From: an uncultured archaeon
GTDB lineage: Archaea; Asgardarchaeota; Thorarchaeia; Thorarchaeales; Thorarchaeaceae
NCBI GenBank assembly: GCA_964558645.1
Contig: CAZLEV010000015.1
Coordinates: forward strand, 1-62,138
DNA length: 62,138 nucleotides
Direction of reading: 5' to 3'
Position numbers and translations under genes: made by a program. Of this stretch, positions 10,867 to 57,612 are shown in pieces. The notes under the pieces are model-generated. The model saw only the letters and a program-made list of their open reading frames with translations. It was not told the DNA's origin and made no database searches. The first letter of the stretch is position 1. Every line of letters starts with the position of its first letter.

Positions 10867-11056
10867 ACGTTCATTGTGTGCTGGCCACACTTGGATTCCA
10901 GGTAGTTGCCCCCCTCAGGTAACGGTACGGGGTGGTCTCTATCGTGGTCAGCGATGCTGTGTGAGTGACCAGCTCTCAGTCATGGACTGGAGTATATGAA
11001 TTCCTGCGCTGAGATGCCCAACTTTGTCCACGTTTAGGGTAGCTGTTGGTATATCC
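10867..11056 (-). mobile_element. Dispersed non-coding element, copy A (IS607-like non-autonomous)
   Basis: Colinear with the copies at 40092, 41323, 48192, 52637 and 56938; starts GGATATACCAACAGCT, ends CAATGAACG. Confidence 0.8.
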
Positions 11057-11062
11057 GTGGTA

Positions 11063-11713
11063 CTAGATATCTCGACAGTCCTTACAGCCGGGACGCGGTC
11101 TAAGTCCGAGATGACGCATTATCTTTCCACCAGGCATCCTTGTTTCTTCACCATCTTCATCATCAGACGACTCTACTGGCACGTCTCGTCGGCCAACCTG
11201 TTTGAAACCATATGCAGTGATGAGTAGCCGGGATGGTCGATTTTCCTCGTAGACCTCACAGTAGATCTCTTCTACACCTGCTTCGAGAAAGTACTCGGAT
11301 GCTCTCTGAATCAATGCAGTAGCTATTCCTCGACGTCTACGAGAGGGGAGTACTCCGATACCTGTGATTTCACCATATGTGGACTCTTCATCCTTCTCCA
11401 CAAAACAGGCAATGAACCCCGAGAGGTCCCCCCCGAGTAAGGCAACAAATATGCCATCGGTATCGAGCTTCTTGGCATCTTCCAGAGTTAGTGGACAGAA
11501 AGGGTCAGGCGAGGCGATGAAACAGCGATTGTAGAGCTCAACAAATCCTTCCATCTCATCTTGACGAAGCTTTCTGACCGTGATATACGTCGGAATGTCT
11601 TTGTCCTTCCACCATTCACTGGCCAGTTCCAGTGCCTCTTTAGCATCTGCCTTCATAATCAAGTAAGAGTGCACGGAAGTATCCGTCTTAGACTCAACTC
11701 CATCTGCCGCCAT
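11063..11713 (-). CDS. GNAT N-acetyltransferase
   Basis: IGVLPSRRRRGIATALI motif A; C-terminal CxxC. Confidence 0.88.
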   Translation of the reverse strand: MAADGVESKTDTSVHSYLIMKADAKEALELASEWWKDKDIPTYITVRKLRQDEMEGFVELYNRCFIASPDPFCPLTLEDAKKLDTDGIFVALLGGDLSGFIACFVEKDEESTYGEITGIGVLPSRRRRGIATALIQRASEYFLEAGVEEIYCEVYEENRPSRLLITAYGFKQVGRRDVPVESSDDEDGEETRMPGGKIMRHLGLRPRPGCKDCRDI

Positions 11714-11775
11714 CAGCCAGTCCTCTATTGGTGCTGTGTGATCATAGATAACAATCTGCTGATTGTTTGCATCGC

Positions 11776-12540
11776 CTACTCCGATAAGAGTAAGTCTATG
11801 GCTGCCACCGTTGCCTGTATCGACTTCTCAACAGCCTCGATCAACAGAGGGTTCTGTTCGCCCGTTTCTTCACTCTCGTCGTCCTGTTCGCCCTTTTGCC
11901 CACCGTGAAGATTACCGTCGCAGGATAGAATAGATGCGGCCTCAAGACCATGGGTGCTTGCAAACACGTATACGAGCGAGCTCTCCATCTCAACACACTT
12001 GACACGCGCCTTTGTCCAGATGTCTAGCTCGCCTGCAAGCCGATCAGCATAGTAGACGTCACTTGTCCAGCAGATTCCTGTATGAACGCGGTCAGGTGGC
12101 AGCAGCTTGACAATCTCCCCATGAAGTGCTTCAAACCAACTGTGCGAAGCCACCGCAGGATACTCAATGGGAGCATAGTTGAGACTGGTCCGTTCATCTC
12201 GAATGCATCCAGTTGGAACAACAACATCTCCCACCACAACCTGAGGGTCTATACCCCCACAGGAACCAATACGGATTATGACCTCGGCTCCTAGCTTAGC
12301 AAGTTCTTCTATGCAGATATGAGTCGAAGGTGTCCCGATGCCAGTGCCTGAAACCGTCACGGGAACCCCTTGGGGTGTATACGCTCGATAGGTCACAAAC
12401 CCTCGATATCGAGCAATCTCTTCCGCATCGCTCATTGCAGACGCGATCTTGGGAACTCTATCAGGATTCCCTGCAATCAATGCTATTCGTTCTACGTCAC
12501 CGTATCCAACACGGAGATGCGGCTGAATTCGACGCTTCAA
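11776..12540 (-). CDS. Uridine/purine nucleoside phosphorylase (PNP_UDP_1)
   Basis: GTGIGTPS, IRIGSCGG, VEMES; TTG start at 12540 preferred. Confidence 0.9.
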   Translation of the reverse strand: MKRRIQPHLRVGYGDVERIALIAGNPDRVPKIASAMSDAEEIARYRGFVTYRAYTPQGVPVTVSGTGIGTPSTHICIEELAKLGAEVIIRIGSCGGIDPQVVVGDVVVPTGCIRDERTSLNYAPIEYPAVASHSWFEALHGEIVKLLPPDRVHTGICWTSDVYYADRLAGELDIWTKARVKCVEMESSLVYVFASTHGLEAASILSCDGNLHGGQKGEQDDESEETGEQNPLLIEAVEKSIQATVAAIDLLLSE

Positions 12541-13076
12541 GTCAGACACCGGGTAACAGATGCTACTTGCTCCCCTTTTCACTGTTCGGTTCCTGAATAA
12601 CTGGGCGAAGGCTGGGCGGATTCCATTCTCTTCATCACGCAATCAACGCAAACCCACTGACCAGCTATCAGGAAAGTTCTTCCTAGATACACGAGAGATT
12701 TGCGGCATATAGAGCAGGGATTCAGCGAGTCAGAGTAGTTCTCAGACAGGTATACCAGTAGAAGGGATATGAGTTTCCTGCGTCCAGACAGCGTTTGCAC
12801 AACATTAGCATCCTTTCCAATGCATCTGCATGATTCCTTATTAGCTCCGAGAACATGATTTTGATTCACTCATCTCCAGAGAGACCTTATGTGATCATTT
12901 TGCGAGCATCTGTTATTTCCTGGTTTGCACGACCTACCTGTCCATCCGAGTCTGAATGACGGAGGTACGGAACTGATAAGTGTCCACGAACAAGCCCCCA
13001 GTGAACGCAAGCTTTCCCTCTGGACATGTATTCTCCGTGGATGTCCCAATTGCTGGTCTGGACTGATGGTCATTCA

Positions 13077-14381
13077 CTAGCAATGATAGAATGGAGCATG
13101 ACTCTCCTTCTTTGGAAAGAGGCTTTCAACCAACCCACGTATTCTACCACTCACAATGAAGTCCGAATTCATCTCGCTTAGTTCCTTCACACTATTCTGA
13201 CCAAGCAAGAGCCTGACGAAGTCCCGACGCATGCTTCTGAATTCAGTATGCTTGTCGTGTCCTTGAAAGCCGATATTCTCCACAGATGTGATTTGACCCT
13301 CAACAAAGTTGAGTATGTAGCAGTCGCGATAGGTATTGATGGCGAACTCTCTCGTGAGAGACTCATACATCGTGCCTTCCAGGCGCCCCTCAAGAACTGG
13401 AATCACCTTTCTCAGGAACCCAGTCACATCAGGAATCCTGACCTGGTAACGCCAACCACGACTCATCTGCCCTCCTAAATCTAGACCAACTTGGCTCATA
13501 TTGCAGACTTGAGTACCCGGAAGGGCAATGCTGCACACATCATTATCCTTTGCCAGTTCACGAACATGGGTGAGTGCGCGTAAGACAGCAGAGTAGCTGC
13601 GTACACTGCTCTCTAGGACATCGACAAGGTGTATGCTCTCGGCGTCTTTCTCTCGTCGAAGTGCAACACGGAAATAACCGATAATCCCGCCCGCATCCTC
13701 CAACACGTGGGTGGTGAAGGGCTGTGCATATTCTTTTTGATTCGTTTCTTGTTGCTCCCAGAGAGACGTTGAACGCTCTGAGCTGATAAGAAGACGGTCA
13801 CAGAAGTGCTCATAGAGTGCCATCATATGCGGTATGTCCTCAGTGGTTGCATGACGGATCTTAAGGGACACAAGAGTAGGAAAATCGTCCACAAGCGTAT
13901 CCGGGATTTGATCAGGCCTTATGTAGACACCACGTCCTAGAGGAATGATGAAATCGTAGTCGAATTGACGGTAGAAGAAGGGGATCCCTGCAATAGTGGA
14001 AATGTCGTAGTTGCCTTTCTTTAGAACTCTGTCGAAGTACTGATACAGAAGCGCCACGAGGCCCTTTCGCCTGTACTCTTCAGTGGTTCCAACAAAGCCC
14101 AGCTCCAGGTTCCTAAGCGGGATGCCTTCGTAGGACCAGACACTGGGGATTGCATTGAGAGAGGACACAATCTTGCCGCTATCGCTCTCACAAATGTAGT
14201 AGTTCATCTCCCTAGCAAACTCTGGGAGACATTCAATCATTCGACGAAGGGCTTCAGCATCCTCATCCCCGTGAATGGTGGCATTGAACTCGATTAGCTG
14301 CTCCAGTTCCTGGTCGGTTTCCACAACGCCGAATTCTAGACCGTCGGGAATGTCCAACCCATCAACATATTTCACGGTCAT
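13077..14381 (-). CDS. Eis-like GNAT acetyltransferase
   Basis: FVGTTEEYRRKGL, GIPFFYRQFDY; tandem-GNAT length. Confidence 0.8.
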   Translation of the reverse strand: MTVKYVDGLDIPDGLEFGVVETDQELEQLIEFNATIHGDEDAEALRRMIECLPEFAREMNYYICESDSGKIVSSLNAIPSVWSYEGIPLRNLELGFVGTTEEYRRKGLVALLYQYFDRVLKKGNYDISTIAGIPFFYRQFDYDFIIPLGRGVYIRPDQIPDTLVDDFPTLVSLKIRHATTEDIPHMMALYEHFCDRLLISSERSTSLWEQQETNQKEYAQPFTTHVLEDAGGIIGYFRVALRREKDAESIHLVDVLESSVRSYSAVLRALTHVRELAKDNDVCSIALPGTQVCNMSQVGLDLGGQMSRGWRYQVRIPDVTGFLRKVIPVLEGRLEGTMYESLTREFAINTYRDCYILNFVEGQITSVENIGFQGHDKHTEFRSMRRDFVRLLLGQNSVKELSEMNSDFIVSGRIRGLVESLFPKKESHAPFYHC

Positions 14382-14455
14382 GATAGACTCATCTCCATGA
14401 GTGTCCCGACCATCACATCTCTGCTTAAGAAGGATGTGAAGAAGACCGCACCGTA

Positions 14456-15130
14456 TCAGCTAGCCTTCAGGTGGTATTCACATAGATTCGTGAGGGGACA
14501 GGCTTGGCACCGAGGGGAAATCCTCAAACATACTAATGCCACAAGGTCAATCATTCCCCAGTATAGTCGCCTGTCATGGTCGGGTTGACCAATATGGCCG
14601 ACCAGTGTCCAGATGGTTTCATTATCAGAAGAAGCTACCTCTAGACCGAAGAATCGTGAGACTAGATGAGCGATGTTACTGTCCACCATGGGCACAGACT
14701 GACCGAAGGCGAAATTGAGGATTGCTGCAGCACTATAGCGCCCGAGTCCCGGAAGCGTGCACAAGATGTCGATATCATCCGGCACCGCTCCTCCGTGCTC
14801 ATCCTGGATTATCTTGGATGTCCGAGATAGATGCATTGCCCTGACTCTCTGGAGACCCAAGCTCTTGACCGCCCTCTGAATCTCAGCCAGCTCGGCCTGT
14901 GCCAATTCCTCGATACAGCCGAACCTGTCAAGGAAAGCTGGGTATACCCGTTCTACTGCCGTGGCCGTGGTGCGCCGCAGAAGCATCTCGGCAATTAGAA
15001 TACGATATGGCGTTGCATCTTCACGCCACGGGTAGTCACGGCCATTGTCAACAAACCAGGAAACTACGGACGCCCTGAATCTGCCGAGAGTCTTCTTATC
15101 GGGTATTCCTGCAGAAGGCAATCTCATCAA
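14456..15130 (-). CDS. HhH-GPD DNA glycosylase, Mig/TDG (T:G mismatch) or MutY-like, with 4Fe-4S
   Basis: EMLLRRTT (Mig-type; MutY has LQQT), LPGLGRYSA HhH, C-x6-C-x2-C-x5-C. Confidence 0.85.
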   Translation of the reverse strand: MMRLPSAGIPDKKTLGRFRASVVSWFVDNGRDYPWREDATPYRILIAEMLLRRTTATAVERVYPAFLDRFGCIEELAQAELAEIQRAVKSLGLQRVRAMHLSRTSKIIQDEHGGAVPDDIDILCTLPGLGRYSAAAILNFAFGQSVPMVDSNIAHLVSRFFGLEVASSDNETIWTLVGHIGQPDHDRRLYWGMIDLVALVCLRISPRCQACPLTNLCEYHLKAS

Positions 15131-15143
15131 TGTCCCTGTGGTT

Positions 15144-16574
15144 TCAAGTCATATAGCGGGAGAGGTCTAGCTGATATGGGTCGATATCCCAGTCGTCACG
15201 TCCATAGGACCACTCTGCGGCGAAGTCGGTCGTTCCTCGCGATCCTTTCACCCTTACAGTCATGATTGGCTGAACCAGATCGATATCCGGACGTTCTTCT
15301 AGATGCTTGAATGTATTGTAGTATTGGACTTGGTGTTTACCAGGAACGGTCAACCATACGATTATTCCCTCAGCCGACACGAAATAGGTGGCTTGTGGTA
15401 CAAGAGCCAGAAGGCGCAGGATGTAATCCCGGCCATGTTCATTGCATATTATCTCGAAACAGAAACTGGAGTCGAGTCCTAGTCCATCGAAGCTGATATA
15501 TGGCAAGACGATTCCCCGTTTCTTGAGCCGCTTCACAACCCCGCCCACCTCTGCCGCATCAAAATCGAACCCTCTTGTCCGAAGATTTCTAGCTAACTTA
15601 CTAGGTTGTGCACGGTAATCAAGTTTCAATTGGCTGCCGACCACAAAATCGATGGGCGAGAATCCTTCAACTGGGCCACGGCACCTGAGCATATAGCGGT
15701 CAAGGCTCTCCACTGGAATCTCGTCGCCCCCATGGAAACCCAGATGTTCGGAGAGAGCCCACTCATTGTTTTTCAGGAGACTGAAATTATACCTCTGGCC
15801 TGTCGCTTGCTGCACGTGGATAGTTGCGTAATCGAAGATGTTATGCGTGAGCTTGGAAACACTGCGACTGAAAGATGAAATCCGTTCTTCTCCTCCCGGG
15901 AAGAGAAATGTCGCGTAGCCCAAATCGGTCATTGTCGTCTTCAGAATGGTTTTTGTGAAGGGGAAATGAGCCAGACCCATCTCTATGTTCGGCCAGTCGG
16001 CGTCATCCTGTAACCTAAAGAATACTACAACTGAATTTATCCCAAAAGCGGTCGTATCTAGGAAGCAGGAAAAGCGGAGGTATACCCGTTCTGTCAGACG
16101 CTTCAGGGATCGCGTTACAGTCCGAGATGAAATACCCAGATGACGAGAAGCATCCACCGTCGATGAGTCCGGATTCTTGGCAAAATATGCAAGGGTACTC
16201 AGGTCACTGGCTGCAATCGGGGTTTCGGGCATCAAGAAAGCAAAAGTAAGCGCGGACCTCACTGAATCGACATTGTTGAGGTTATACTTCTTGAGCGTTC
16301 TCAGGTTGTCGATAATTCTCTCTTTCACAACCTCGTTCAGAGGAACGCCGGTGGGATTGAAGGGATACTTTGTATATTCTGGGTTTCCCTTGAGCTCTGA
16401 AACACCCTTGGAGGCAAGATCGAAAGATATAGTCCCGGAACACAGACCGAGATAGATACGCATGGCATCAAGATAGAATCTCACGGTTTCGTCAGTTGTA
16501 GTGGGGACTATGTCGTCGTAGGGTGTCACAATTTGTGACAAGGCGTCTCGTTTGATATCCACGTGGTGTCCCAC
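15144..16574 (-). CDS. Multi-domain wHTH/Lrp-like regulator (tandem HTH-ligand domains)
   Basis: ASRHLGISSRTVTRSLKRL HTH, a second HTH (VVKRLKKRGIV), and FG/LG linker to a RAM-like domain. Confidence 0.65.
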   Translation of the reverse strand: MGHHVDIKRDALSQIVTPYDDIVPTTTDETVRFYLDAMRIYLGLCSGTISFDLASKGVSELKGNPEYTKYPFNPTGVPLNEVVKERIIDNLRTLKKYNLNNVDSVRSALTFAFLMPETPIAASDLSTLAYFAKNPDSSTVDASRHLGISSRTVTRSLKRLTERVYLRFSCFLDTTAFGINSVVVFFRLQDDADWPNIEMGLAHFPFTKTILKTTMTDLGYATFLFPGGEERISSFSRSVSKLTHNIFDYATIHVQQATGQRYNFSLLKNNEWALSEHLGFHGGDEIPVESLDRYMLRCRGPVEGFSPIDFVVGSQLKLDYRAQPSKLARNLRTRGFDFDAAEVGGVVKRLKKRGIVLPYISFDGLGLDSSFCFEIICNEHGRDYILRLLALVPQATYFVSAEGIIVWLTVPGKHQVQYYNTFKHLEERPDIDLVQPIMTVRVKGSRGTTDFAAEWSYGRDDWDIDPYQLDLSRYMT

Positions 16575-16599
16575 CTTGGTTAGGACGCTGCTATACTAA

Positions 16600-17652
16600 T
16601 CAAAAGAGGTACGGCAGAACGTCCACTAATCCTTTTCTGATAATTCGTGCTTCCGTTATGAATGTAGATACTTGCGCGTCTGACTTAAGCATGTTGGATA
16701 GCGAAATTGAGAATCCAAACCAATCGGAGGCGCTAGGTAGGCTGATATCCATTGCCACAAGTCGACTCCCCGAGAGAATCCTAGCTCTTGGTAATACATG
16801 TCCCTGAGAGTGCAAGAGCCTTGAAACGTTGCTACCCCTAGTAAGATCATTGACACAAGTAAGGATGCTTGGTCCGAGTCCTATGTTCTGAATCTCTATA
16901 TAGGGGCGAGCCAGACTTCCTCTATAATCAGAGAGCCTTCTTCGGATTGTCCTGAGTGAGGAGGGCGAGAGGCCAAGAGTGAGCATGTAATCATAGACCT
17001 GAGCAGCACTGGTGTAGTAATCACTCTCGAGGCATGCGCCGGTTGCCAAGAAATCAGGTGAAACTTCTTTCGATGGTCCTTGGTCGAGCCGAGCGTTAGC
17101 TGGAAGAATCTCTGAGAACTCCCGTGCTGCGTCGATTGATGCTTCAAACCTGAAATCAGTCGTGAAGTCCCAGCTACTGCCATTGAAGAGCCCAAGGTTC
17201 AGGTGCTCCGTGATGGTCGAAACAGGTTCGCACTCAATGGTCAGATTGTAGGGACGTTTCTCAAACTTCGCCAGTTTCTCTAAGAAGTCGGAATGGTGTG
17301 TTCCAAGAGGCAAGAGCGCTTCGAAATACACTCTCTCGTCTGTCTTAGTACTCATGAGCGCGTCTGCCTTGGCTATGACAAACGGATTTGCATCGAGCCA
17401 TCTGGAGAACTTCTTAACGGCAGCTGCATCTTCCTCACTCCATGCCCAACCAATAAGTATCGAGAAGCCAAGGAGGTAGTAGTCCAAAAGACTACGAACA
17501 CGTAGTTTCCGTTCATCCACCAATCGATGCCATATCTGGCTCACCGCAGATCGACTGACACCAAGCTGTTCTGCAATACCAATTTGTCTCTCTGTAGGGT
17601 TGATAGCCAAGCGCCTCAGCACTCGGAGCTCAGAGGAACCAAGAGGTTTCAA
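16600..17652 (-). CDS. wHTH/Lrp-like regulator paralogous to the downstream gene
   Basis: IAEQLGVSRSAVSQIWHRL; shares the N-L-x-L-x-N-x-x-W and PYI...GL motifs with 15144..16574. Confidence 0.7.
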   Translation of the reverse strand: MKPLGSSELRVLRRLAINPTERQIGIAEQLGVSRSAVSQIWHRLVDERKLRVRSLLDYYLLGFSILIGWAWSEEDAAAVKKFSRWLDANPFVIAKADALMSTKTDERVYFEALLPLGTHHSDFLEKLAKFEKRPYNLTIECEPVSTITEHLNLGLFNGSSWDFTTDFRFEASIDAAREFSEILPANARLDQGPSKEVSPDFLATGACLESDYYTSAAQVYDYMLTLGLSPSSLRTIRRRLSDYRGSLARPYIEIQNIGLGPSILTCVNDLTRGSNVSRLLHSQGHVLPRARILSGSRLVAMDISLPSASDWFGFSISLSNMLKSDAQVSTFITEARIIRKGLVDVLPYLF

Positions 17653-17963
17653 ATCCAGTCATATCTGGATATACGTGGCCAGTTGTTAAGATTTTGGGTC
17701 AAGAATTCGTCAAGATTTTCGGCATGAGGGATGAAGGGCATAGGAGCGAACTCTCCCATGCAAAAGAATGCAGACAGAAGGGCAGAGATATCGATCTTTC
17801 GTACCCCGTCTCTTTTATTTAGGACTTTGGCCTTCATCTACTTGTCAGTTGGAAATGGAGTCCGACGAAGAACGGTCTCTATGAAGTGTTGCGCAAATGG
17901 AAGCCACACAGCTTCAGTGTGGACACTTAGCTAGCTGACCATCTGGCGGAAGAAGGCCAGGAG

Positions 17964-18107
17964 GTGAATACAATCAGCGCCGCAAGTATGCGAGAAGTGT
18001 ACGAGTCTCTGACTGAGAGTCGTGTTATTCTCGAGCTTTGTGCAAAGGGTGTCGGTGGCCTATCCACCATCGTGCAGCCCCCATGCGAGGATCCTTGTCC
18101 TTTCTAG
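17964..18107 (+). CDS. Small Cys/Pro-rich peptide (44-47 aa)
   Basis: GGAGGTGA at 17960-17967, then open frame ...LELCAKGVGGLSTIVQPPCEDPCPF*. Confidence 0.5.
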   Translation: MNTISAASMREVYESLTESRVILELCAKGVGGLSTIVQPPCEDPCPF

Positions 18108-18179
18108 ACTTCAGCTTTTGCTACGAGGAGACTGAGGTCGGGAAAGGCAGGCTGACGGCGTTGACTGGCCGTAAGCCGG

Positions 18180-18338
18180 ATGTGTGAAAACATCGACTTA
18201 CAGCAAAATTCACAGGAGGATGAGAGAAAAAATGACACCAGGACCATGGGAAGAACCAGAACCATTCTAAGAGAAATACTTCGAGAGATGTTGAATGAAA
18301 GAAGAAAATCGGAGGAAAAAATGATTGATAAGAAGTGA
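18180..18338 (+). CDS. Small charged helical protein (52 aa)
   Basis: MCENIDL...RTILREILREMLNERRKSEEKMIDKK*; stop overlaps the next ORF. Confidence 0.4.
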   Translation: MCENIDLQQNSQEDERKNDTRTMGRTRTILREILREMLNERRKSEEKMIDKK

Positions 18339-18576
18339 AAGCATCGACACGCTAGCATTCCTAGTTCAGCCTGAAAATGGGCGGGAAGTTGATCCCTTCA
18401 ACGACCCTGAGATTGTCAGGTTAGTAGCAGCCAACCTTGAGATGGCAGTCAGGAACCTGATGATGGCAAATTCAGCACCGGGGTGCCTTGTACTGACCGC
18501 AGACATCTGCAGTCACAAACTGGTTGCTGCTCCAAAGGCAGACGGAAGCATTAGTGTCACAGTATACGATGAGTAG
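18325..18576 (+). CDS. Hypothetical protein (83 aa)
   Basis: GGAGG upstream; globular-looking sequence. Confidence 0.65.
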   Translation: MIRSESIDTLAFLVQPENGREVDPFNDPEIVRLVAANLEMAVRNLMMANSAPGCLVLTADICSHKLVAAPKADGSISVTVYDE

Positions 18577-18722
18577 CCCGACGTCAGATTTGTCAGTGTG
18601 GATTGCCGTGCCCGAATATTGGGCCGGTAATCCTTGGCACCAAGAATTGATGGGAGGCTAAATAGCTATGTGGATACTCAAGACCGGATTGACTCGGTAT
18701 TTATGGGTCAGGAGAGTACTGC

Positions 18723-20141
18723 ATGCAGAGTCTACAAGAAGATAAGAAAGAGGGATCAGCTACGGAGGACCGTGATTCCATCACCAATGCCCCTCCGCAT
18801 GGCGAAGACGGGGAGTCTACTGAGGGCAAGAGCGTCATAGCGTCACTGAGAAGAGTCTTCTCGTGGCGGAACTATGTCGTCTATTTACTAACGTCGTGGA
18901 CCTTCAGCGCACTGGCTATTATGGATGGTTTTCGGAATCTCTATCTGCGGAACCTTGGCTGGGATTTCATCTTGATTGGTGTCGTTGCGAGTACCACTGG
19001 TGTGGTGGCTGCACTTTCGAGACTTGGAGGGGGATACATTGGGGACAACTATGATAGAAGGGCACTCTCTGTCGTGGCGATGGCCGTATCAGCGGCGTAT
19101 TACTTTATGATTGGCATTAGTGATGCGTTCATCATTGTGTTCATCGCACTTAACACCTATGCCCTGACGAACTTGGCAAAAGGAGGCTCCACGGCCTTCA
19201 TCATGGATAATATCCCGAAGAGCGACAGCGGATTTGCGCTCTCAATCTTCAATGCTGGAAAGTCCTTGGGGGTCGTCACACTTCTAGTATTCTCAGCTCT
19301 GATTCCAGTCTTTGGATTCGGCCAAGGCTTTCGGATTTTGTATCTCTTCACCGGAATTTCCCTGCTGATATGCGCGGTCATACGTGAACGTCTGCTACTG
19401 CCAGCTGAGGAGAATAGGACACGAGAGAGAACATTGTCTCTCTTCAGGGACTTTCTGCAAGAGAATGCCAATGCCCTTCGACACCTGTTCTCCCTTATCC
19501 CGGGCGTCTTCCTTGTTGTCATTGTCGATGCGCTAAGTGATGATATGTTCCACTTTGGAGCCCTTATCTATTCAAACGAAATTATCGGAGTCTCGATTAG
19601 TGGAATCACTATCATTATGCTTGTCTCCTTACTTCTTATAGGACCACTTGTCTTGAAGGTTGGTCGCATGTCTGATAGAAGGGGAATCAAAAGAGCGGGA
19701 ACTGCTGTGTATACTCTCATGCCTGTTTCTGCACTTCTGCTTGTCCTTGCTTCTTACATGACCTTCTGGGCGCCCATCGAGCTCTATGTCTTAGCGGAAT
19801 CGCTGTGGCCCGGATTGGGTGCAATCTTCACAGTTCCCTTTGTCGCCATCGTACTGAAAAATGTCAATGATCTGCTCTGGTGGGTTCTGCTCATCACAAT
19901 AATCCAGAAGTCCCTTCCAAGGACGGATACAGCCAAGATGCTTGCCTGTTTCTGGTTCACGGTGTATGTAGTAAGGGCGATTGGCCCTCTGATTGCAGGG
20001 TACATCTTCCAGTATTCCAGTCCCGTCCTCCTCTTCGTCATCGTATTCTTCATGAATCTTCTCATCTTGGGGTTGATCCATCTGGGAGCTTTGGATGTCA
20101 ACGGAGAAGAGATACCTGAAGTAGAAAGGGAGGAAACTTAA
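18723..20141 (+). CDS. MFS transporter
   Basis: GYIGDNYDRR and GRMSDRRGIK motif A; about 12 TM segments. Confidence 0.92.
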   Translation: MQSLQEDKKEGSATEDRDSITNAPPHGEDGESTEGKSVIASLRRVFSWRNYVVYLLTSWTFSALAIMDGFRNLYLRNLGWDFILIGVVASTTGVVAALSRLGGGYIGDNYDRRALSVVAMAVSAAYYFMIGISDAFIIVFIALNTYALTNLAKGGSTAFIMDNIPKSDSGFALSIFNAGKSLGVVTLLVFSALIPVFGFGQGFRILYLFTGISLLICAVIRERLLLPAEENRTRERTLSLFRDFLQENANALRHLFSLIPGVFLVVIVDALSDDMFHFGALIYSNEIIGVSISGITIIMLVSLLLIGPLVLKVGRMSDRRGIKRAGTAVYTLMPVSALLLVLASYMTFWAPIELYVLAESLWPGLGAIFTVPFVAIVLKNVNDLLWWVLLITIIQKSLPRTDTAKMLACFWFTVYVVRAIGPLIAGYIFQYSSPVLLFVIVFFMNLLILGLIHLGALDVNGEEIPEVEREET

Positions 20142-20203
20142 GGCCTGCCTGCTCCCATTGCAGGTGTCGAACAGACATTCCATTCCAGACGAGGAACCCC
20201 GAG

Positions 20204-40091: not shown

Positions 40092-40292
40092 GGGTAGACC
40101 AACAGCTAAAGCCAAATCGGACATATAGTAGAAGACAGTCTGACAATGTAAGAGCCTCCGTACAGTGTCCAAATACTCTATCTCTGAGGTCTCATCCAAG
40201 ATCATCTCCTGACCTCAAAGAGTTCAACCCAAGTGCCATCTCTAGAAGAATGACACTCCTGCGTCCAAGACTGTCTCACCTACAATGAACTG
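40092..40292 (+). mobile_element. Dispersed non-coding element, copy F
   Basis: Starts GGGTAGACCAACAGCT, ends GCGTCCAAGA...TACAATGAAC; TGAGGTC/GACCTCA hairpin. Confidence 0.72.
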
Positions 40293-41322: not shown

Positions 41323-41510
41323 GGCATACCAACAGCTATCGAAAACGTGGACAAAGGTGGACATCTAAGGGTAGGAGTCTATATCCTCCAGCTCATGACT
41401 GAGAGCTGGTCACTCATACACTATCGCTGACCATGACCGAAACCAACCAGTGCCGTTAGCTGGGGGGACAACTCCCTGGTGTCCCAGTCTGTCCAACATT
41501 CAATGAACGG
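41323..41510 (+). mobile_element. Dispersed non-coding element, copy B
   Basis: GGGCATACCAACAGCT ... CATGACTGAGAGCTGGTCACTCA (identical to A) ... CAATGAACGG. Confidence 0.82.
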
Positions 41511-41628
41511 CTAGCAGGGGGTGTTCTTGCGAAGCAGTTCCAGTTCTAGGTCCCCTGCAAGCCATATACTGAACAACGGCAGCGGAATTATGTATCATAA
41601 AACAGTGCTGCCGAGAGTCTTACGAAGT

Positions 41629-47688: not shown

Positions 47689-47745
47689 TCATAGGGGATA
47701 GATGGTCTATAGCAGAGGTGCACCCGACCGAAGGAGTGGACCGAA

Positions 47746-48191: not shown

Positions 48192-48378
48192 CCGTTCATT
48201 GTATGTTGGATAGACTTCGATACCAGAGAGTTGTCCCCCCGGTGACGGCACTGGATGGTTTCTGTCGTGGTTAGCGATAATGTGTGAGTGATTGCTATCA
48301 TTCATTGGTCCGAAGATATGAAAATTCATGCTGGGATGTCCAGCTCTTTCCAAGTATTCTGTAGCTGTTGCTATACCC
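48192..48378 (-). mobile_element. Dispersed non-coding element, copy C
   Basis: GGGTATAGCAACAGCT ... CCAGTGCCGT...GGGGGGACAACTC ... CAATGAACGG on the minus strand. Confidence 0.8.
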
Positions 48379-48399
48379 AGAACCCTACTGCGTAATGCT

Positions 48400-48997: not shown

Positions 48998-49023
48998 TGA
49001 AGAGAGTATCTGAACTCTCTTCA
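48998..49023 (-). terminator. Hairpin downstream of dps
   Basis: TGAAGAGAG...CTCTCTTCA, followed by a pyrimidine tract on the minus strand. Confidence 0.5.
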
Positions 49024-49053
49024 CTGTATAGTGAGCCTATGTTATGCTTGCAC

Positions 49054-49608: not shown

Positions 49609-49702
49609 CTATTATTTCACCTTGCTACTAAATCGAAGTGACTTGTATTTAACTATTACTTTCCATAACCTTATTATGTTAGACAACTAGCATCAACCTG
49701 CG

Positions 49703-50098
49703 ATGAACCGTCTCAGAAAACATGGACTCCGTCTGACCCCACAGCGAGCTGCAATACTAACGATTCTGGAGAGTAAGGGAAAACTCCACCCCTCATTCTC
49801 AGAGATATGCGAGGGAGTCAGAGTAAGACATCCGAATGTAAGCCAGTCCACTGTGCTCAAGAACCTGGTGACATTCGAGGAATTAGGCATTGTTCGTAGC
49901 TTTTCATTTCGGGGAGAAACACATTACGAGCTGAATGCTGCTCCACACGTGAACTTCGTGGACAAAGAGGGAAGAATCACGGACATTGACGATGAGAAGG
50001 TACGAGACATTCTTGACGAACTCGTCCAGACCATAAAGAAGCGCACCGGGATGAACACAGGCAACCTGCTTGTCATGATGGAAGCCAAGAGAACCTAG
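49703..50098 (+). CDS. Fur/PerR family regulator (Cys-less C-terminal domain)
   Basis: LRLTPQRAAIL, HPS, SQSTVLKNL, YELN..PH; divergent from dps. Confidence 0.88.
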   Translation: MNRLRKHGLRLTPQRAAILTILESKGKLHPSFSEICEGVRVRHPNVSQSTVLKNLVTFEELGIVRSFSFRGETHYELNAAPHVNFVDKEGRITDIDDEKVRDILDELVQTIKKRTGMNTGNLLVMMEAKRT

Positions 50099-50244
50099 AA
50101 GAACCGGCTGCACACCTCGAAACAACCCACATCATGATACAACGTACCCCGTCAGTGGAGAACAGATGGAAGAGATCTCTCGGACTGCCGAACTACGAAT
50201 GGGCAGACAGGGAGGGGTCTGAGTGACTACATTCACCAAGTAAC

Positions 50245-50820
50245 TCACCTGTGTGTGAGTAAATCGTGTTGAGCAGTTGTGATCTCCTCTGGATGCAAAG
50301 GGATATTCTCAAGACTGGGGGGCTTGGCATCAACAAGTGCTGGAAGAACGCACAGTTCTGTTGCTTCCAGCCAGTTCTGCATTCTATCTCTCACAACGTC
50401 CTTCGAATTATCTCGTTGAACCGGCTCCAGACTCTGAATGCCAAATCCATCAAGTAGCAACGAGTAGTTCAGAACGCCTGAGGTTGTCTTCTGCTCTCCC
50501 GTAGTTACGTAGGCACGGTTGTCAAGAATCAGAATATGCAGATTCTTCGGTCGAACAAAGGAGGTGGTGGTCAGTGAGCTCAGCCCCATCAGGAGATTGC
50601 CATCGCCAAGGATGGTGAGAACCTTTCTTTCAGGCTGGCTCATCGCTACTCCCAGACCCACGGAAACAGGAAGACCCATACTGCCTCGAAGGTAGATCTG
50701 AGGGCGTGGGAGATAGTGATAGACCTGGCGACTGATGTTGCCATTACTGCTGACAATCAGTTCGTTCCCGGTGAGGAGCGACGCAAGTTCTTGGATGACC
50801 TCATACCCGTACATTGTCAC
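50245..50820 (-). CDS. comE: Sulfopyruvate/phosphonopyruvate decarboxylase beta subunit
   Basis: GSMG, GDGNLLM...N ThDP motif. Confidence 0.78.
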   Translation of the reverse strand: MTMYGYEVIQELASLLTGNELIVSSNGNISRQVYHYLPRPQIYLRGSMGLPVSVGLGVAMSQPERKVLTILGDGNLLMGLSSLTTTSFVRPKNLHILILDNRAYVTTGEQKTTSGVLNYSLLLDGFGIQSLEPVQRDNSKDVVRDRMQNWLEATELCVLPALVDAKPPSLENIPLHPEEITTAQHDLLTHR

Positions 50821-51323
50821 AACACCCCTTCTTTCACCAGAAGAGCCACGGGTCTCGAGGTCTCCTCCATCTTATCAGACGCCGATTCAATGGTATGTTC
50901 CCAGTTCTCCCCTCTCAGTTCCCAATATGGAACTACATAGGCGTCCAGGACGCTTTCCGTTACGTTCCCCATGAGGGAGTGTTCTGGAAAGTCGCGGTCT
51001 GGTTCAAGCCCACGCCAGCTGATGATGAGCAGCATAGGCAACCTATAGAGCTGAGCAAGTGAGGTCAGTACATCACCAATCGTTGCAAACCCGGAGTTCT
51101 GCATGATCACAAAGGCACGGGCTCCACCGAAGGCCACACCCGAGGCAATACCTACTGCCTCATCCTCCCTCGTTGCTGGGATGTACCTGATCGAGTCAGT
51201 TCGCTCGAGTTCATCTATCACTCGTGAGAAGTACGAACACGGAACTCCCGATGCAAAAGCGAACCCCTGCTCTCGCAGAACTTGGAGAAACTCAGAACTG
51301 CCGATCATACCCTCACGCCCCAT
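50817..51323 (-). CDS. comD: Sulfopyruvate/phosphonopyruvate decarboxylase alpha subunit
   Basis: GVPCS, TREDEAVG, MQNSG. Confidence 0.78.
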   Translation of the reverse strand: MGREGMIGSSEFLQVLREQGFAFASGVPCSYFSRVIDELERTDSIRYIPATREDEAVGIASGVAFGGARAFVIMQNSGFATIGDVLTSLAQLYRLPMLLIISWRGLEPDRDFPEHSLMGNVTESVLDAYVVPYWELRGENWEHTIESASDKMEETSRPVALLVKEGVL

Positions 51324-51957
51324 TCCCCTGACTTAAATCTCGCGATTATAAGGGCGGGAGAAACCGTCATTTCAGGCTGCTATCACGTCATGGTACTTGG
51401 AACACGTGTTCTAAGTATCTGGTTCTCGGGAATGAAGGTGTTTGGTGAGTAGCATCGATCGGTTCCAGAGGGTGCACCATAATAAGAGGGGAATGCCTAA
51501 GGTATGGTGGGAAAACACTAGCAATCTCAAGGTTTGAAGGATACGGCATCATCACCATAGCTGTAGATACAGGTAACATAGCCATATCCTCTTCCTGCAG
51601 CAAACAGTGTGGGAGTTTCTACAAAGACAGAATTGTCACACAGCCCCCTTGGAGAAACTATCAGCATACTAGACAAAATCAGAAGGTGTGTCCTCTTCAG
51701 TCACTCTTGAGGAGATCAAGCGGCTACTATAGATCGAACAAAGACCAAAGCGAACCTAACTGTTACCCACCCGTTTAATGACTGAAGATTGGTTGGTGGT
51801 GGTTCATCCTCGGGAGTAGTCACGTCGATTTCTCTTCGACTAGCTCACAGCGTTGGGCTTCTTGGACACGACTCAGGGTTCTCTTTAGGTGAGAGAACTT
51901 ATAACGTCACAAGAGCAGATATACCAAGGGGAAGAAGAACTGGCAGATAGCATGCAT

Positions 51958-52563
51958 ATGGGGAACTCGATGGACTCCTATCCAGCCGTATGCTGGTGGT
52001 GTGGAACAATCGAAACCGACAATTGGGTTGAACGGGAAGGCCGCATATACTGTTCAGTTGGGTGTCACCTCGCCGCGACCTACAAGGAAAACATAGGAAT
52101 GGGGTTCTGTTTCTTGTCGATAGCATTTTTGATGGGCGCAATCCACCCAGTGGGCGGCTTCTTTGGTCTTTTCTCGCTAATCTCGTTCCGGGTAGCCTAT
52201 GAAGGCAGGAAGTATCTCCACAAGAAGGATAAGTACGGCGCGCCTCCCCGGGAGAAGCTCCGCACACTTGACTTCTCGCAAAGACTGCCATCCCCTAGAC
52301 CAAGACTCAATTTGATCTGCTCTCATTGTGGTCATCTCAACCGGGTGGACATTTTAAGATGTGAGAACTGCGGGGCATCGCTTCTCGCGTCCGATTTGGC
52401 CAAACTGACCGTGGTCCCCTCTAGTAACTCCAAAAGAGTGAAGTGCCCCTGGTGTTCGGCGGTCTATTCCTACAGTCCGTCTAGTTTCAGGGAGGAGGGG
52501 AGTGTGGTCTGCCAGAACTGCAACAAGTCATTCTTCATCGAACAGAATGATGAAGATGACTGA
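51958..52563 (+). CDS. Zn-finger/TM/double zinc-ribbon protein
   Basis: CWWCG...YCSVGC, TM hairpin, four more CxxC. Confidence 0.72.
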   Translation: MGNSMDSYPAVCWWCGTIETDNWVEREGRIYCSVGCHLAATYKENIGMGFCFLSIAFLMGAIHPVGGFFGLFSLISFRVAYEGRKYLHKKDKYGAPPREKLRTLDFSQRLPSPRPRLNLICSHCGHLNRVDILRCENCGASLLASDLAKLTVVPSSNSKRVKCPWCSAVYSYSPSSFREEGSVVCQNCNKSFFIEQNDEDD

Positions 52564-52636
52564 TCCCGACTCTTGGGTGACAGATACTCAGAACTCCGAA
52601 CCTGTCGACCTCGTACGGCCAGAAATCTCAGAGGGT

Positions 52637-52825
52637 GGGTAGCGAAAGGCTGCCTGGAACAGGAACACAATTGGACACCTCAGAATGGGAAAACAAGTCC
52701 CCCAACCACCGACTGAGAGCTGGGTTCCAAGCTGCTGCCCGCAGAACCTGCAGAGAACCGCTGTCTGGAGCTTGAAACCTGCTCTAATGGTGGGAAGAAG
52801 AAGATTCAGTCAACACACGCACGAG
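52637..52825 (+). mobile_element. Dispersed non-coding element, degenerate copy E
   Basis: A 75-nt stretch aligns without gaps to copy A (49/75 by hand), ending GACTGAGAGCTGG; the 3' half is diverged. Confidence 0.55.
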
Positions 52826-52935
52826 TCAGAGAAACGTCACCGTTACACCCCCTCTTGCAGCAACACTTGACTATTCCGCATCTTCTCCCTCATAGAACCC
52901 GGCTCAAAGCTACAGGAGAGCTGTGAAGCCCAGAG

Positions 52936-53718
52936 TCACAGTGAGAACGCACCCTTGAACTTGCTGCTTCGATAGCAGGCCTTGATACATTTTCCACAGA
53001 TATCCTCAGTGATGCCCTTGGACTGAAGAAACAGCATATAGCGACGACAGTTCTCCCTGTAGTCAGGTAGAGCGTCACGATGCCTGATGAAGCCACAGGC
53101 ATCCTCACAGGCAGTGCAGTCGCCGCATCTAGACTCCATTCTCGTCCCGTGGAGAAGCGGGATTCCAGTGATCACCGATGCAAATCTTATGGCGCAACTG
53201 AACCTTTCATGTATGACGAGCTGGTTCTTCCCTCTCCATCCAATCCCCGCGTTCTCTGCCACCACTCTATGAGAGATGACCATGGGGAAGTACTCATGCA
53301 CATGCTCTATGTCCTCAATCACTCCACCCATCGTCGCCTCTAGCGCAATACCATGGAAACGGGACGCAATGCGCTCAGATAGCCTGTTCAGCAATTGATT
53401 CAGTCGGTCATACTCCTGTGCATACCTGTCCCAGAGCGGATAGTCCGGACTGTGATTCTTTTCCTCATCAATATAGTCAATGACAGGGTCCCGATATGCG
53501 ACTGCAATGCTGATTATGGAGCCCGAGTCGTAGAGGGAATGAAAGTCACTTCCCACAATCTCGCGAATCTTGGTCTTCTGTGCATCCATCAGTTCGTCGT
53601 ATACGACACTGAAACTCGCGACCCCGATGACGCCTCTCTCATGCTCCTCTTGGACCAGTTGGTGAAAGAACTCTGATAGCTCTCGGGTGTTCTCTTCAGC
53701 GTCGTTCATCCAATCCAT
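52936..53718 (-). CDS. Epoxyqueuosine reductase-like 4Fe-4S protein
   Basis: AGIGWRGKNQL, CGDCTACEDAC, CGKCIKAC. Confidence 0.8.
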   Translation of the reverse strand: MDWMNDAEENTRELSEFFHQLVQEEHERGVIGVASFSVVYDELMDAQKTKIREIVGSDFHSLYDSGSIISIAVAYRDPVIDYIDEEKNHSPDYPLWDRYAQEYDRLNQLLNRLSERIASRFHGIALEATMGGVIEDIEHVHEYFPMVISHRVVAENAGIGWRGKNQLVIHERFSCAIRFASVITGIPLLHGTRMESRCGDCTACEDACGFIRHRDALPDYRENCRRYMLFLQSKGITEDICGKCIKACYRSSKFKGAFSL

Positions 53719-53919
53719 CTCGATACTCTCTCTTACAAGTCACTCATCCATCGTCTCTTATATCGGGTGTGGAACAAGAACAAGGGGGATTGTCACAGAG
53801 AGAGAGCAACCTAGTCGTGGTTCTCGTAGGCCTGGCACACCGCGGCCTTCGGACTCTCAGGGGGTTAACCAAATCTTTGCTATCTGTTACTTCTACCTCA
53901 TGGATGGCTTCAAGCAGTT

Positions 53920-54555
53920 CTAGGCTGTCTTCCTGGCGAATATCCAGTATTGCCTCTCGCCACCCAGACTCAATACCCCTTCAGACAATATCTCAAATCC
54001 CAAGTCTTTCACAACTGCCAGTGTCTTCTTCGGATCGTTCGTGCTCCACAACATGGGCTCACCAAAGAACTGGCTCATACCCTCGGACTCATAGACTCCT
54101 GTATTGAATACCAATATCCCATCATCGCTGAGCATGCGATGGAAGTTCTGAATGATCTCAGGATGGTGGGTTCGCGGAATGTGCCACAGAGTATAGACAC
54201 AGATGATACCATCAAAGGACTGATTTGGAAAGTCCAGCGTGGCGATGTTCTTCTGGTGGAATGTGGCCTCAGGGACATTGGCTCTTGCCAGATCCACCAT
54301 GCTCTTGGAAATGTCAACTCCTGTCACCTCGAAGCCCTTCTTCACCAGGAACTCTGCCGTAGGTCTTCCAACGCCACAGCCTGCATCCAGAACCCGACCT
54401 GAAGAGGGGAGTAGGTCACAGAACTGCTCCAGCTCATCCCTGAACTTGTTGTTGTTTCTGTAGTTGTGATATGTCTCTCCCATCTTGTCGTAGCTCTCTT
54501 CCACTGTCTTGAATATCTCCAAGAATACCAAATCCTCCTGTGAATCACTGACCAA
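53920..54555 (-). CDS. Class I SAM methyltransferase
   Basis: VLDAGCGVG, GVDIS. Confidence 0.9.
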   Translation of the reverse strand: MVSDSQEDLVFLEIFKTVEESYDKMGETYHNYRNNNKFRDELEQFCDLLPSSGRVLDAGCGVGRPTAEFLVKKGFEVTGVDISKSMVDLARANVPEATFHQKNIATLDFPNQSFDGIICVYTLWHIPRTHHPEIIQNFHRMLSDDGILVFNTGVYESEGMSQFFGEPMLWSTNDPKKTLAVVKDLGFEILSEGVLSLGGERQYWIFARKTA

Positions 54556-54859
54556 TTAGTTACGGTCAGAATATAGTCTGTCAAACCACGTGTATGTTAA
54601 CAATATTTAACTGCTGTGCTGAGGGCACAAGGCATCAGTTTCAGCTCTCTAAGGAGAGCACCTGCCAATCTGGGCGGTACGAGTCATTCCGTGAGCACAA
54701 CTCCAATTAGAAGCGAGAAGAGCATCAATGTCTGGAAGTCAAACATGACCTTCCCAATCTTGGCCATCTCAATCGCGATAGGTCTACTCTTGAGCACATA
54801 TAGACTCCTCGTGGCGCTATCATGGAAATCGTCATTGCGCACTGTCGTCTAACATCTGA

Positions 54860-55020
54860 ACAGTGTCTGAAGAGTGTGCTGTACATTGTCAGAGGACAAA
54901 CGGTTCAGCAAGATTGCTGGAGTCTTGGACAACGAGGACATCGATGTCATCAAGCGAACTATCGCAGCAGTCAGAGTCAGAAGTAGAGAACAAATCAAGG
55001 CTATTTTCACACACGACTGA
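54860..55020 (+). pseudogene. Remnant of a VapB-type antitoxin
   Basis: KRFSKIAGVLDNEDIDVIKRTIAAVRVRSRE (from 54898) matches KRLSEIAGVLDDEDIEVIERAVASIRARSRE of 60337..60573; no intact 5' half. Confidence 0.75.
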
Positions 55021-55091
55021 TATTCAGCAGTCTTGCCGACAGAGCGCTACGATAGAGTGGCTTATCGCTGCGCCAGGAGCAGTCTAGGCCA

Positions 55092-55517
55092 TCATCCAAC
55101 GAACTCGATTCTGTCGGATAGTTTGCCCGACTCCATTGCATCGACTATCTCCTTCTCTCTGCGAGCGAATAGTGCGGTCCCGCCTGTCAGTCGTGCAGCT
55201 GCGATAGTGAAGCAATCGGGCAAGGCGACGGCTGCCTTGCACTTTATCTCTGCTGCCTCAGTCCAGAGAACTCGAAAGGGGATTACCGCAACAAGGGCCG
55301 AACGTAGGAGGCTCTCTGTCTTCTCCATAGCCTCAGCCCAACTCAACCTTCGACAGAGGATGTAGCTCAGTTCGCAGAGGGCGATCTCCGTGCATGCATA
55401 CGAGCTAGGGCCATCAGCAATACTCTGGGACAGGTCCGTCATGAAGGGCTCGCCAAGAGCAAGAGCGATCAACACCCCAGCATCTAGTATGATTGTCTCA
55501 TCTTCGCCGGTCTTCAT
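55092..55517 (-). CDS. vapC: PIN domain toxin
   Basis: IILDAGVLI, E, LPDCF. Confidence 0.85.
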   Translation of the reverse strand: MKTGEDETIILDAGVLIALALGEPFMTDLSQSIADGPSSYACTEIALCELSYILCRRLSWAEAMEKTESLLRSALVAVIPFRVLWTEAAEIKCKAAVALPDCFTIAAARLTGGTALFARREKEIVDAMESGKLSDRIEFVG

Positions 55518-55749
55518 CAAGGCGCCTCTCCAGCATAAGGTCGACATAGAGTGAATCGAAATCAACGCCTGAGATGGGAGCTGTGAACCGCTCCCAGGCC
55601 TCCTTGTCCACCTGCCTCTCAGTATACTCATCGATAAGGAATCGGATTACCGTATCGAAATCCGCCCGTTTCTGAGTCCTCTTTTGAAGCTCACCTGCAA
55701 TGCGCAGCAGTTTCTTCCGTGTTTCCTCCTTGATCGAGATCGTGGTCAT
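55498..55749 (-). CDS. vapB: Antitoxin (RHH-like)
   Basis: MTTISIKEET...FDTVIRFLI; overlaps the PIN gene. Confidence 0.8.
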   Translation of the reverse strand: MTTISIKEETRKKLLRIAGELQKRTQKRADFDTVIRFLIDEYTERQVDKEAWERFTAPISGVDFDSLYVDLMLERRLDEDRRR

Positions 55750-56114
55750 AACCTGTCATTGTAGGTCTATGTGTTTATTGTAATAAACACAACGATTGTG
55801 TTATACACAGTAGACACAGGAAACTCAGTGAGGAGATGTCCGAGATCAGCCGGCGTATCCTAGACTTGGCATGTAACGGAGAGAATCATCAGTCTAGATG
55901 CCGACCAGCATTTTCGTAGCTGTCATGTCAGGCTTCGGACGCCCCCTTGAAATGGTGGAGGAGTTGTTGCCTCGGTAGAAAGGTTGTCTGTTCCCTCTAT
56001 CTGACTACGAGAGTCATCATCAGGAACGGGAATCTCGCAATACTAGTGAGATACCCCCAGATCGGTGCAATGAGACCATCACCTATTTTTGGGTCCCGTG
56101 CGAGTGTTTCAGAC

Positions 56115-56426
56115 ATGACCGAGAGAGAGGGAAGAATAGCCGAAGAAAAGAGAACGGTTGAACTGATGATTCGGTACTACTGTGAGCACAGACACGATTC
56201 AGAGGTTCTATGCCCAGACTGTGAAGACCTTCTCGACTACGCCCGGTCCCGGCTAGACAACTGCAGATACGGCAACGATAAGCCAACCTGCAGGAAATGC
56301 AAGACTCACTGCTACAGTCCACAGTACCGAGACCGGATCAAGACGGTCATGCGATTCTCTGGCCCGCGAATGCTGTTCACAGCGCCCTTGCGATGGATCA
56401 GACATGTGCTCCACGACCGGGAGTAG
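56115..56426 (+). CDS. YgbA (nitrous oxide-stimulated promoter) family protein
   Basis: MIRYYC, KPTCRKCKTHCY, VMRFSGPRM. Confidence 0.88.
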   Translation: MTEREGRIAEEKRTVELMIRYYCEHRHDSEVLCPDCEDLLDYARSRLDNCRYGNDKPTCRKCKTHCYSPQYRDRIKTVMRFSGPRMLFTAPLRWIRHVLHDRE

Positions 56427-56689
56427 ACACTGATGTGTCTAGGATTTGGCTGCACTCATAGTGCCTATAGCTGGTGAGGGATGCAGACAGCCCCGTGGAC
56501 AACGAGCATCCACGAGATGACTCTGTAAGGTACTGTGTAGGACTCTACACAGCCTGATTTCGGAGCCCTCACCTTGAAGTCAAGAATACAGACATTCCAT
56601 CCTCACAGAATTGGTCCAATGCCGCTTCTCGAGGGTCATCCAAGTCACACCAGATGCCTTTCTGCTCCAATACCAACGGGGGACCAGCA

Positions 56690-57612
56690 TCAACTCTCGT
56701 CCAGAAACTGCTTCAGACTCTGAGTGGCCTCCCTCGTGAGTCCTCGGATCACAATGGGAGAGATGGTGATATTGTTCCGCTCAGTGACCTCAATGATGTC
56801 TTCGGTGTCACCAAGATCGGTCTCGCCACCCTGAATCCAGTAGTAGGTGCCGCTGTAGGGGTCCTCTCTGGCCTCTATCCGGTTCGGTACGGCCGCAATA
56901 GTAGATTCGGTGATCACCAGTCTTGAGTCCTCTGTGACCGTTCATTGTAAATTGTACAATCTTGGACGCCAGAGTGATGTACTCCCAAGAACGGCACTGG
57001 GGAGACTCTGTGAGGCCATAGGGCGTGTCAGTCAACCTCATACTCTCATCTCTCTCCGGGAGTATATAAAGACCTACATATTTATTCAGATGCTCATCTA
57101 TGAAGTGTCCAACTTTGTCCCACTTCTATGCAACTGTTAACAACCCTTTTGGGAAAGTTCAGGTTGAGTACATCGATCCCTTCGGGGAAACCCTCTGCAA
57201 ATATGCACTCGATAATCCTGAGTGTGTGTGAGCAGATGAGGTCAAGGCCACTCTCGACACCGTTCTGCGTGAACCAGTACTTGGACTCGACATCCTGTGA
57301 CACAGCCAGAGCCGGATAGCCCTGCAGTGCGGCCTCCAGAGCGGCGCCAATCGTGCCACTGGTGAGCATACGGTGATAGCCAAGGTTAGCACCGGGGTTG
57401 ATCCCAGACACGAAGAGGTCAAAGTTATCTCGCATGGAGAGCGCAATGGGAACCGAGTCTGCAGGGAACCCGTCATGGATGATGAGTTCGTAGTCCTCGG
57501 TCTTGGAATGCTCAAGATAAACCATTTCTGACACATTGAGGCACCTCAACCTGTCGGAAACTTCTGTGTTCCACCCGTCCCCTGCCAGTGTCACCACTCC
57601 CAGCAGTCCCAA
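56690..57612 (-). pseudogene. surE: surE 5'/3'-nucleotidase, interrupted and 5'-degraded
   Basis: SGINPGANLG, SGTIGAALEA, LNLNFP | VTEDSRLVIT...DPYSGTYYWI; N-terminal NDDG motif absent. Confidence 0.85.
56938..57146 (-). mobile_element. Dispersed non-coding element, copy D, inserted in surE
   Basis: Removing 56939-57144 (206 bp) restores CCC AAA AGG GTC ACA (P-K-R-V-T) in frame. Confidence 0.88.

Follow-up and report, generated by a model that had tools for sequence, protein, structure and literature searches.

Contig CAZLEV010000015.1 of the Thorarchaeales assembly GCA_964558645.1 carries six copies of a gene-less repeat of about 200 bp (Table 1), here termed mini and labelled by start coordinate (A, 10867; B, 40092; C, 41323; D, 48192; E, 52637; F, 56938). 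The window, the stretch of 62,138 nt that was analyzed, is the whole of this contig (C15) of a 3.63-Mb archaeal genome, G000 (assembly 92.8% complete); named homologs of a linked protein are nearly all from Thorarchaeota. An original prediction took the repeats for non-autonomous IS607-type elements carrying an omega RNA-like scaffold. All six copies lie where it placed them, but its lettering did not follow coordinate order, so that some of the motifs it described belong to other letters. Its density of about one copy per 10 kb holds in the window only; genome-wide the figure is about 1 per 120 kb, the window lying about tenfold above the genome average.

An iterated profile search of the whole genome recovered 30 full copies and 50 matches at E<1e-3, and the same search of the reversed genome recovered none. 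A pattern constrained at the ends only, with the middle left free, matched 19 of 86 host-family genomes in ten genera, and had no matches over the 86 genomes when reversed. Copies A, C, and D share 74-81% identity with one another, and B and F belong to longer subfamilies. Most copies in the window are decayed, with A, B, D, and E being old relics. Copy A is probably immobile, copy B occupies the same site in the sister species G001 and is missing from G002, and copy E, which scores E=2e-5 against a profile built without it, is matched over its left ~114 bp only, its right end having been lost. Copy F is identical to a sibling on contig C1 at 207 of 209 positions and has therefore moved recently.

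The site in G001 orthologous to copy A (L054:118-327) has GGG and is occupied by a copy of a different subfamily, which suggests that one copy replaced another through gene conversion, or that insertions took place more than once at a single GG. At L021 (G000 C6:15509-15830), one mini sits inverted inside another. The surE gene that holds copy F contains a second insertion (window 57518-58082), which is related to the 3' end of a second TnpB family of ~570 aa and is missing in G001. That family has inverted GTTCACTCA-type motifs as its bounds; it is also found near the giant gene described below, and sometimes near tRNA genes.

Table 1. Positions of the mini copies and their parts in the window, and of related features at other loci
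Feature	Position	Strand	Remarks
Copy A	10867-11055	-	Short subfamily; both GG cores mutated (GA, GT)
Copy B	40093-40292	+	Old member of the long subfamily; lacks the first left repeat through deletion, right end TG
Copy C	41323-41510	+	Short subfamily, intact ends
Copy C left repeats	41348-41363	+
Copy C TATA-like word	41378-41385	+
Copy C 5' hairpin arms	41407-41412 and 41428-41433	+
Copy C predicted omega RNA	41407-41530	+	Scaffold to 41510, flank guide 41511-41530; predicted from TATA spacing and the covariation model
Copy D	48192-48377	-	Short subfamily, intact ends, decayed 5' hairpin
Copy E	52638-52825	+	Degenerate; independently recognizable only at 52638-52751
Copy F	56938-57145	-	Long subfamily, youngest; at one GG inside the surE gene (SurE match)
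Copy F left-end direct repeats	57106-57121	-	11-bp period, weaker third repeat after; presumed TnpA binding sites by analogy to IS1535 (PMC6188088)
Copy F TATA box (TTTATATA)	57063-57070	-
Copy F 5' hairpin P1	57011-57040	-	Arms 57034-57040 and 57011-57017; helix 1, 79% paired across 29 minis
Copy F second pseudoknot	56970-57010	-	57005-57010 with 56970-56975; encloses stem-loop SL2
Copy F stem-loop SL2	56984-57001	-	Loop 56990-56994 pairs with terminal AACGG
Copy F stem SL3, right-end repeats, and terminal AACGG	56938-56982	-	Common to the tnpB 3' end
Copy F right-end repeats	56952-56968	-	Inverted relative to the left end
Copy F predicted guide	56918-56937	-	Host surE sequence beyond the right end; predicted from IS607 right-end RNA (reRNA) architecture (10.1101/2023.11.20.567912)
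Second scaffold-like stretch in tnpB, L011	near 6121	-
Second scaffold-like stretch in tnpB, L088	8510-8600
Second scaffold-like stretch in tnpB, L093	near 4615	-
Second scaffold-like stretch in tnpB, L095	5913-6000
~570 aa TnpB family	G000 C10:75040-76821
~570 aa TnpB family	G000 C26:35666-37384
~570 aa TnpB family	G000 C28:3-1448
~570 aa TnpB family	G000 C2:431037-432761

DNA Ends, Insertion Sites, and the Parent Element

At the left end of the minis, two TTGGACA repeats are set at a period of 11 bp, and the pair recurs in inverted form (TGTCCAA) inside the right end. The predicted lack of terminal inverted repeats is thus correct for the termini themselves, but not for these internal motifs. 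The left GG is usually preceded by G, and the right GG is followed by a pyrimidine (T or C) in 25 of 26 G000 copies and in all 30 family-wide; the terminal GG core is mutated in copies A and B. Empty sites with GG at the junction, as anticipated, were seen for two copies. Copy F is absent from surE in both sister species (G001 and G002), where the site is one GG without duplication. A sibling mini at C1:208371 splits another gene, probably encoding an ADP-ribosylglycohydrolase to judge by its motif, and its empty site is again a single GG without duplication. No empty site was readable for copies A, C, D, and E or for four other copies, the flanks being too diverged or rearranged.

Other classes of small element were considered. 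A classical miniature inverted-repeat transposable element (MITE) was rejected, there being neither terminal inverted repeats nor target duplication. A PATE (palindrome-associated transposable element), derived from IS200/IS605, was rejected because the direct-repeat ends lead into a serine transposase and are not Y1 subterminal hairpins. An IStron was rejected because an Rfam search of the window gave no match to the repeat, and so no group I intron core, and because the element is only ~200 bp long.

A full element with these ends, carrying both tnpA(S) and tnpB, was found in relatives. The complete parents (L088, L093, and L095; 8-8.7 kb) comprise the left end, a serine tnpA, a convergent gene for a giant protein of 1,640-1,860 aa, a tnpB of ~720 aa, and the right end. 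The TnpA proteins of L088 and L095, of the serine-recombinase type with an N-terminal HTH, exceed the 110-bit cut-off of the IS607 transposase model NF033518, a score of 175 bits being recorded for tnpA(S). In relatives, a left-end profile places the same left end 70 nt before an intact tnpA start codon, and the profile match between mini and tnpA start stops at about 68 nt. A deletion series leads from parent to mini through L097 and L099 (2.6 kb), L098 (724 bp), and L100 (560 bp). Judged from sequence, the minis are derived from this Thorarchaeota IS607 parent; their ends, their GG junctions, and the parent that shares those ends bear out the predicted assignment to non-autonomous IS607 elements. 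The giant gene of the parent, the inverted subterminal repeats, and the second RNA pseudoknot described below were not part of the original prediction. Within G000, left-end-only matches on C1, C2, and C5 continue into an IS607 tnpA with frameshifts, and no left end was found directly after the giant gene in the copies on C14, C27, and C6.

Two further derivatives were noted in G000. L015 (C5:222112-227012) is a cargo-carrying IS607 derivative, in which two intact genes of 791 and 233 aa lie as cargo between a left end with a remnant of tnpA and a remnant of tnpB with a right end. At C27:7800-29554 lies a tnpA-less pair of giant gene and TnpB, 93% identical to the pair on C14, which adjoins genes that read as PCNA-like and restriction-modification-like.

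The right end connects the minis with TnpB. Four partial repeat matches fall exactly on the 3' ends of tnpB-like genes, and the last ~64 nt of the repeat correspond to the final codons and 3' flank of the ~720 aa TnpB, which has a RuvC D-E-D motif; TnpB copies that keep this motif exist in G000. The large TnpB was detected in 15 of 25 host-family genomes; 16 genomes from outside the family yielded none. The protein scores over the PF07282 cut-off and, because it is divergent, under that of NF040570. Sequence conservation ends at the right GG, with the flank beyond as a variable, predicted guide.

Large-TnpB loci with degenerate right-end repeats lie beside tRNA genes in G000 (L143, L133, and L002, at C6:136159, C2:25186, and C16:1560), and further tRNA-adjacent loci are L121, L125, L132, L142, and L144. 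Their guides resemble the neighboring tRNA after GG, with 2-6 mismatches in 14 to their own allele; several fit the allele of another genome better than their own, and the G022 guide is one mismatch from the tRNA-Lys allele of element-free genomes. The pattern of matches looks like homing against rival tRNA alleles. Large tnpB genes contain a second scaffold-like stretch in their first codons (Table 1). At 4 of 4 loci, the next 11-13 nt have a match in the promoter region of the same gene, the match being preceded by TGA or TGG, a possible case of autoregulation.

The giant gene has >120 homologs, and is positioned head-to-head with tnpB at many loci. Its product has no Pfam or NCBIfam match. 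In the predicted structure (predicted local distance difference test, pLDDT, 85.8), residues 5-252 resemble a Cas1-type helical domain (Z 13.1 to Cas1, with a root-mean-square deviation of 4.0 over 178 aligned residues; Z 10.7 to casposase) and residues 592-890 a RecA-like fold, and a PD-(D/E)XK-like motif was read from the sequence between the two. The C-terminal half is modeled with a weak second Cas1-like domain; most of this half has no fold match above Z 6.6, which is not proof of a new fold. E72 is nearly, and H195, D202, D205, and R208 are fully, conserved; these residues would map to the Cas1 triad, on the basis of motif and not of residue-level superposition.

Promoter and Predicted RNA

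The TATA-like word of the original prediction was confirmed as a canonical TATA box at a fixed distance before the predicted RNA. Among 30 loci taken from the end-only pattern, which are related and hence not 30 independent events, the box is perfect in 17 and matches at least seven of eight positions in 26, against a genome background of 0.02% and 1.6%, respectively. None of 26 parent 3' ends reaches seven of eight positions. In most loci the box precedes the first shared stem by 69-72 nt and the 5' hairpin by ~30 nt, and the spacer between box and hairpin is constant in length and variable in sequence. In copy F the box is downstream of the would-be tnpA start, and is therefore not the tnpA promoter. 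A TATA-like word is also found 30-37 nt upstream of many host tRNA genes. We infer that transcription of the minis starts around the first base of the 5' hairpin. Two related minis of G012 (L169 and L188) lack this hairpin and have a TATA box just 39 nt before SL2, representing a shorter scaffold variant.

Covariation is present across the minis. A model consisting of the 5' hairpin (P1), SL2, SL3, and two pseudoknots is 89.3% paired on 29 minis, compared with 37-48% when slid, and shows 52 double changes compared with 15.6 +/- 4.5 in shuffles, although these controls overstate the significance, as the structure was drawn from the same, related sequences. Helices 2-4 of the model (second pseudoknot, SL2, and SL2 loop-3' end) are 89%, 89%, and 97% paired. 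The first pseudoknot forms between the loop of SL2 and the terminal AACGG (82-97% paired), and one of its pairs swaps between C-G and G-C in different lineages; its covariation is modest because its columns are mostly invariant. The second pseudoknot, formed by the linker after P1 and the SL3 loop, has double changes in four of six pairs, 31 in all. No consistent equivalent was found in the parents; when minis and parents are combined in one set, there is support for SL2, SL3, and the first pseudoknot. The GGGGG/CTCCC hairpin proposed earlier is not a conserved pairing: the G-run contributes to two adjacent stems, and the CTCT/CTCC tract has the upstream linker as its pairing partner.

Proposed Mechanism and Alternatives

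It is probable that the minis are gene-less IS607 elements that carry a guide RNA under their own promoter and are served in trans by TnpA and the large TnpB. TnpA made elsewhere would bind the two sets of phased TTGGACA repeats, one at each end, and mobilize the mini through recombination at GG, preferring G-GG-pyrimidine. The internal TATA box would drive an RNA of ~120 nt, comprising the 5' hairpin, two more stems, two pseudoknots, and 16-20 nt of right flank. The large TnpB would load this RNA in trans and cut the empty version of the same site beside a G-rich motif, and repair from a filled chromosome copy would restore or spread the mini, leading to its retention. Retention promoted in trans by TnpB and RNA has been shown for one bacterial IS607 (10.1101/2023.11.20.567912), and the same pathway has been proposed for PATEs (PMC10055086).

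Several observations weigh against this mechanism. The assembly of G000, at 92.8% completeness, contains remnants but no intact tnpA, and G000 has no match to the resolvase family PF00239. Three incomplete genomes (G003, G012, and G018) have minis and no large TnpB at E<=1e-30. The minimum free energy (MFE) of single-sequence folding is no better than that of shuffles (z about 0), and the structure therefore rests on covariation, with controls that are generous as described above; RNAalifold returned no structure from a sequence-only alignment. Decay in the main G000 subfamily is fairly even (11% from consensus, 16% in the TATA box), and most copies are therefore not under selection after insertion.

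The even decay and the MFE values, together with the two G012 minis that lack the 5' hairpin, would fit plain MITE-like relics, whose DNA ends alone count and whose RNA-like features are inherited, functionless leftovers. This holds in practice for copies A, B, D, and E, but is quite unlikely for the family. The TATA box is absent, and the second pseudoknot not evident, at the parent 3' end, so that these features are not simple leftovers; the spacer has kept its length despite sequence change, and the second pseudoknot has accumulated its many double changes. What selection acted on were the spreading lineages; single copies are mostly relics.

The mini RNA might instead serve a machine of TnpB and the giant Cas1-fold protein that integrates or copies DNA at guided sites. 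The head-to-head genes, the modeled Cas1-type, RecA-like, and second Cas1-like domains, and the 93% identical tnpA-less parent copies in G000 would all be consistent with such a machine. Cas1 integrases, however, produce target duplications, whereas the insertions here have the signature of a serine recombinase, and nothing directly links the giant protein to the minis, making this a very unlikely explanation. As the parent carries both the giant Cas1-fold gene and a serine tnpA, and its junctions are of the serine type, it is the serine recombinase that leaves the insertion signature. A host-domesticated, dispersed guide library or antisense regulator acting on other genes or invaders is the least probable reading and already disfavored: each copy has a different flank, some copies adjoin the 3' ends of convergent genes, and related full-length TnpB loci have fixed, tRNA-like guides, but GG-preceded matches of the mini guides elsewhere in the genome are at chance level (14 vs. 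16 for shuffled guides), and the sites are polymorphic between sister species, with two breaking genes.

The preferred reading thus remains that of gene-less IS607 elements served in trans. A bolder proposal, which we consider unlikely, is that the minis are more than truncated right ends and represent an evolved, dedicated guide-RNA gene, with a new promoter, 5' hairpin, and second pseudoknot, for a distinct large TnpB working with a giant Cas1-nuclease-RecA fusion in a serine-recombinase transposon, and that the same lineage yields fixed TnpB loci targeting rival tRNA alleles. If true, this would represent a transposon-to-CRISPR-like intermediate that diversifies its guides as a tiny RNA gene transposes. 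With the minis, it can readily be tested whether borrowed TnpB is what lets gene-less elements persist. They also define a compact, self-promoted scaffold of ~105 nt and a predicted G-rich target motif for the ~720 aa TnpB clade, a basis for reconstitution.

Comparison With Known Systems

IS607 elements, their reRNAs, gene-less omega RNA elements, and Asgard Cas1-TnpB pairs are already known. A partial literature search, which did not include Makarova 2020, yielded no description of the mini family, its promoter, its second pseudoknot, or the three-gene parent, and an earlier mention of the Cas1/serine-recombinase link is possible; this partial search likewise yielded no paper treating both TnpB and Thorarchae.

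The ends have phased motifs as in IS607, IS1535, and ISC1926 (PMC6188088). Shared features are a serine TnpA, crossover at GG with a (G)GG preference, the lack of target duplication, and helically phased motifs that start ~20 bp inside the end and are inverted between ends. Unlike these elements, the minis are gene-less, and the 8-8.7 kb parent has a third, giant gene and a TnpB of about twice the usual size. As in the IS607 reRNAs of CboIStron (10.1101/2023.11.20.567912), ISXfa1 (PMC10711439), and ISFba1/RAGATH-18 (PMC11061315), the scaffold extends to the right GG, a loop pairs with the 3' end, the flank would provide the guide, and the predicted targets are G-rich; reported bacterial IS607 targets are TGGG, GGG, and GAGGG. 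The ISFba1 RNA also has three stems and two pseudoknots (PMC11061315), the likeness of the second pseudoknot being one of description only. In contrast to known IS607 reRNAs, the minis have no Rfam match, an archaeal TATA promoter of their own in place of overlap with the tnpB mRNA, and no intron.

PATEs derive from IS200/IS605 and frequently encode omega RNAs (PMC10055086). They resemble the minis in having no genes and in their reliance, proposed here for the minis, on TnpA and TnpB in trans. The minis differ by their IS607 ends and GG chemistry, which take the place of Y1 hairpin ends, and by a dedicated promoter and an extra RNA domain.

The parent's combination of a Cas1-fold gene with TnpB resembles the Asgard aCas1-associated TnpB systems Cas1H-Asgard-1/-2. 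In the source on these systems (PMC10691335, citing Makarova 2020), aCas1 is said to replace the serine recombinase and to be the likely transposase, and the published GTTCACTCA motif is borne by the ~570 aa TnpB family of this study. In contrast to the systems as described there, the intact parents carry both a Cas1-fold gene and a serine recombinase, with IS607 ends and GG junctions. They bear on the published aCas1-transposase proposal, in that the insertion signature in this clade is that of the serine recombinase, not of Asgard Cas1, and the role of the giant Cas1-fold protein thus becomes a testable question for this clade.

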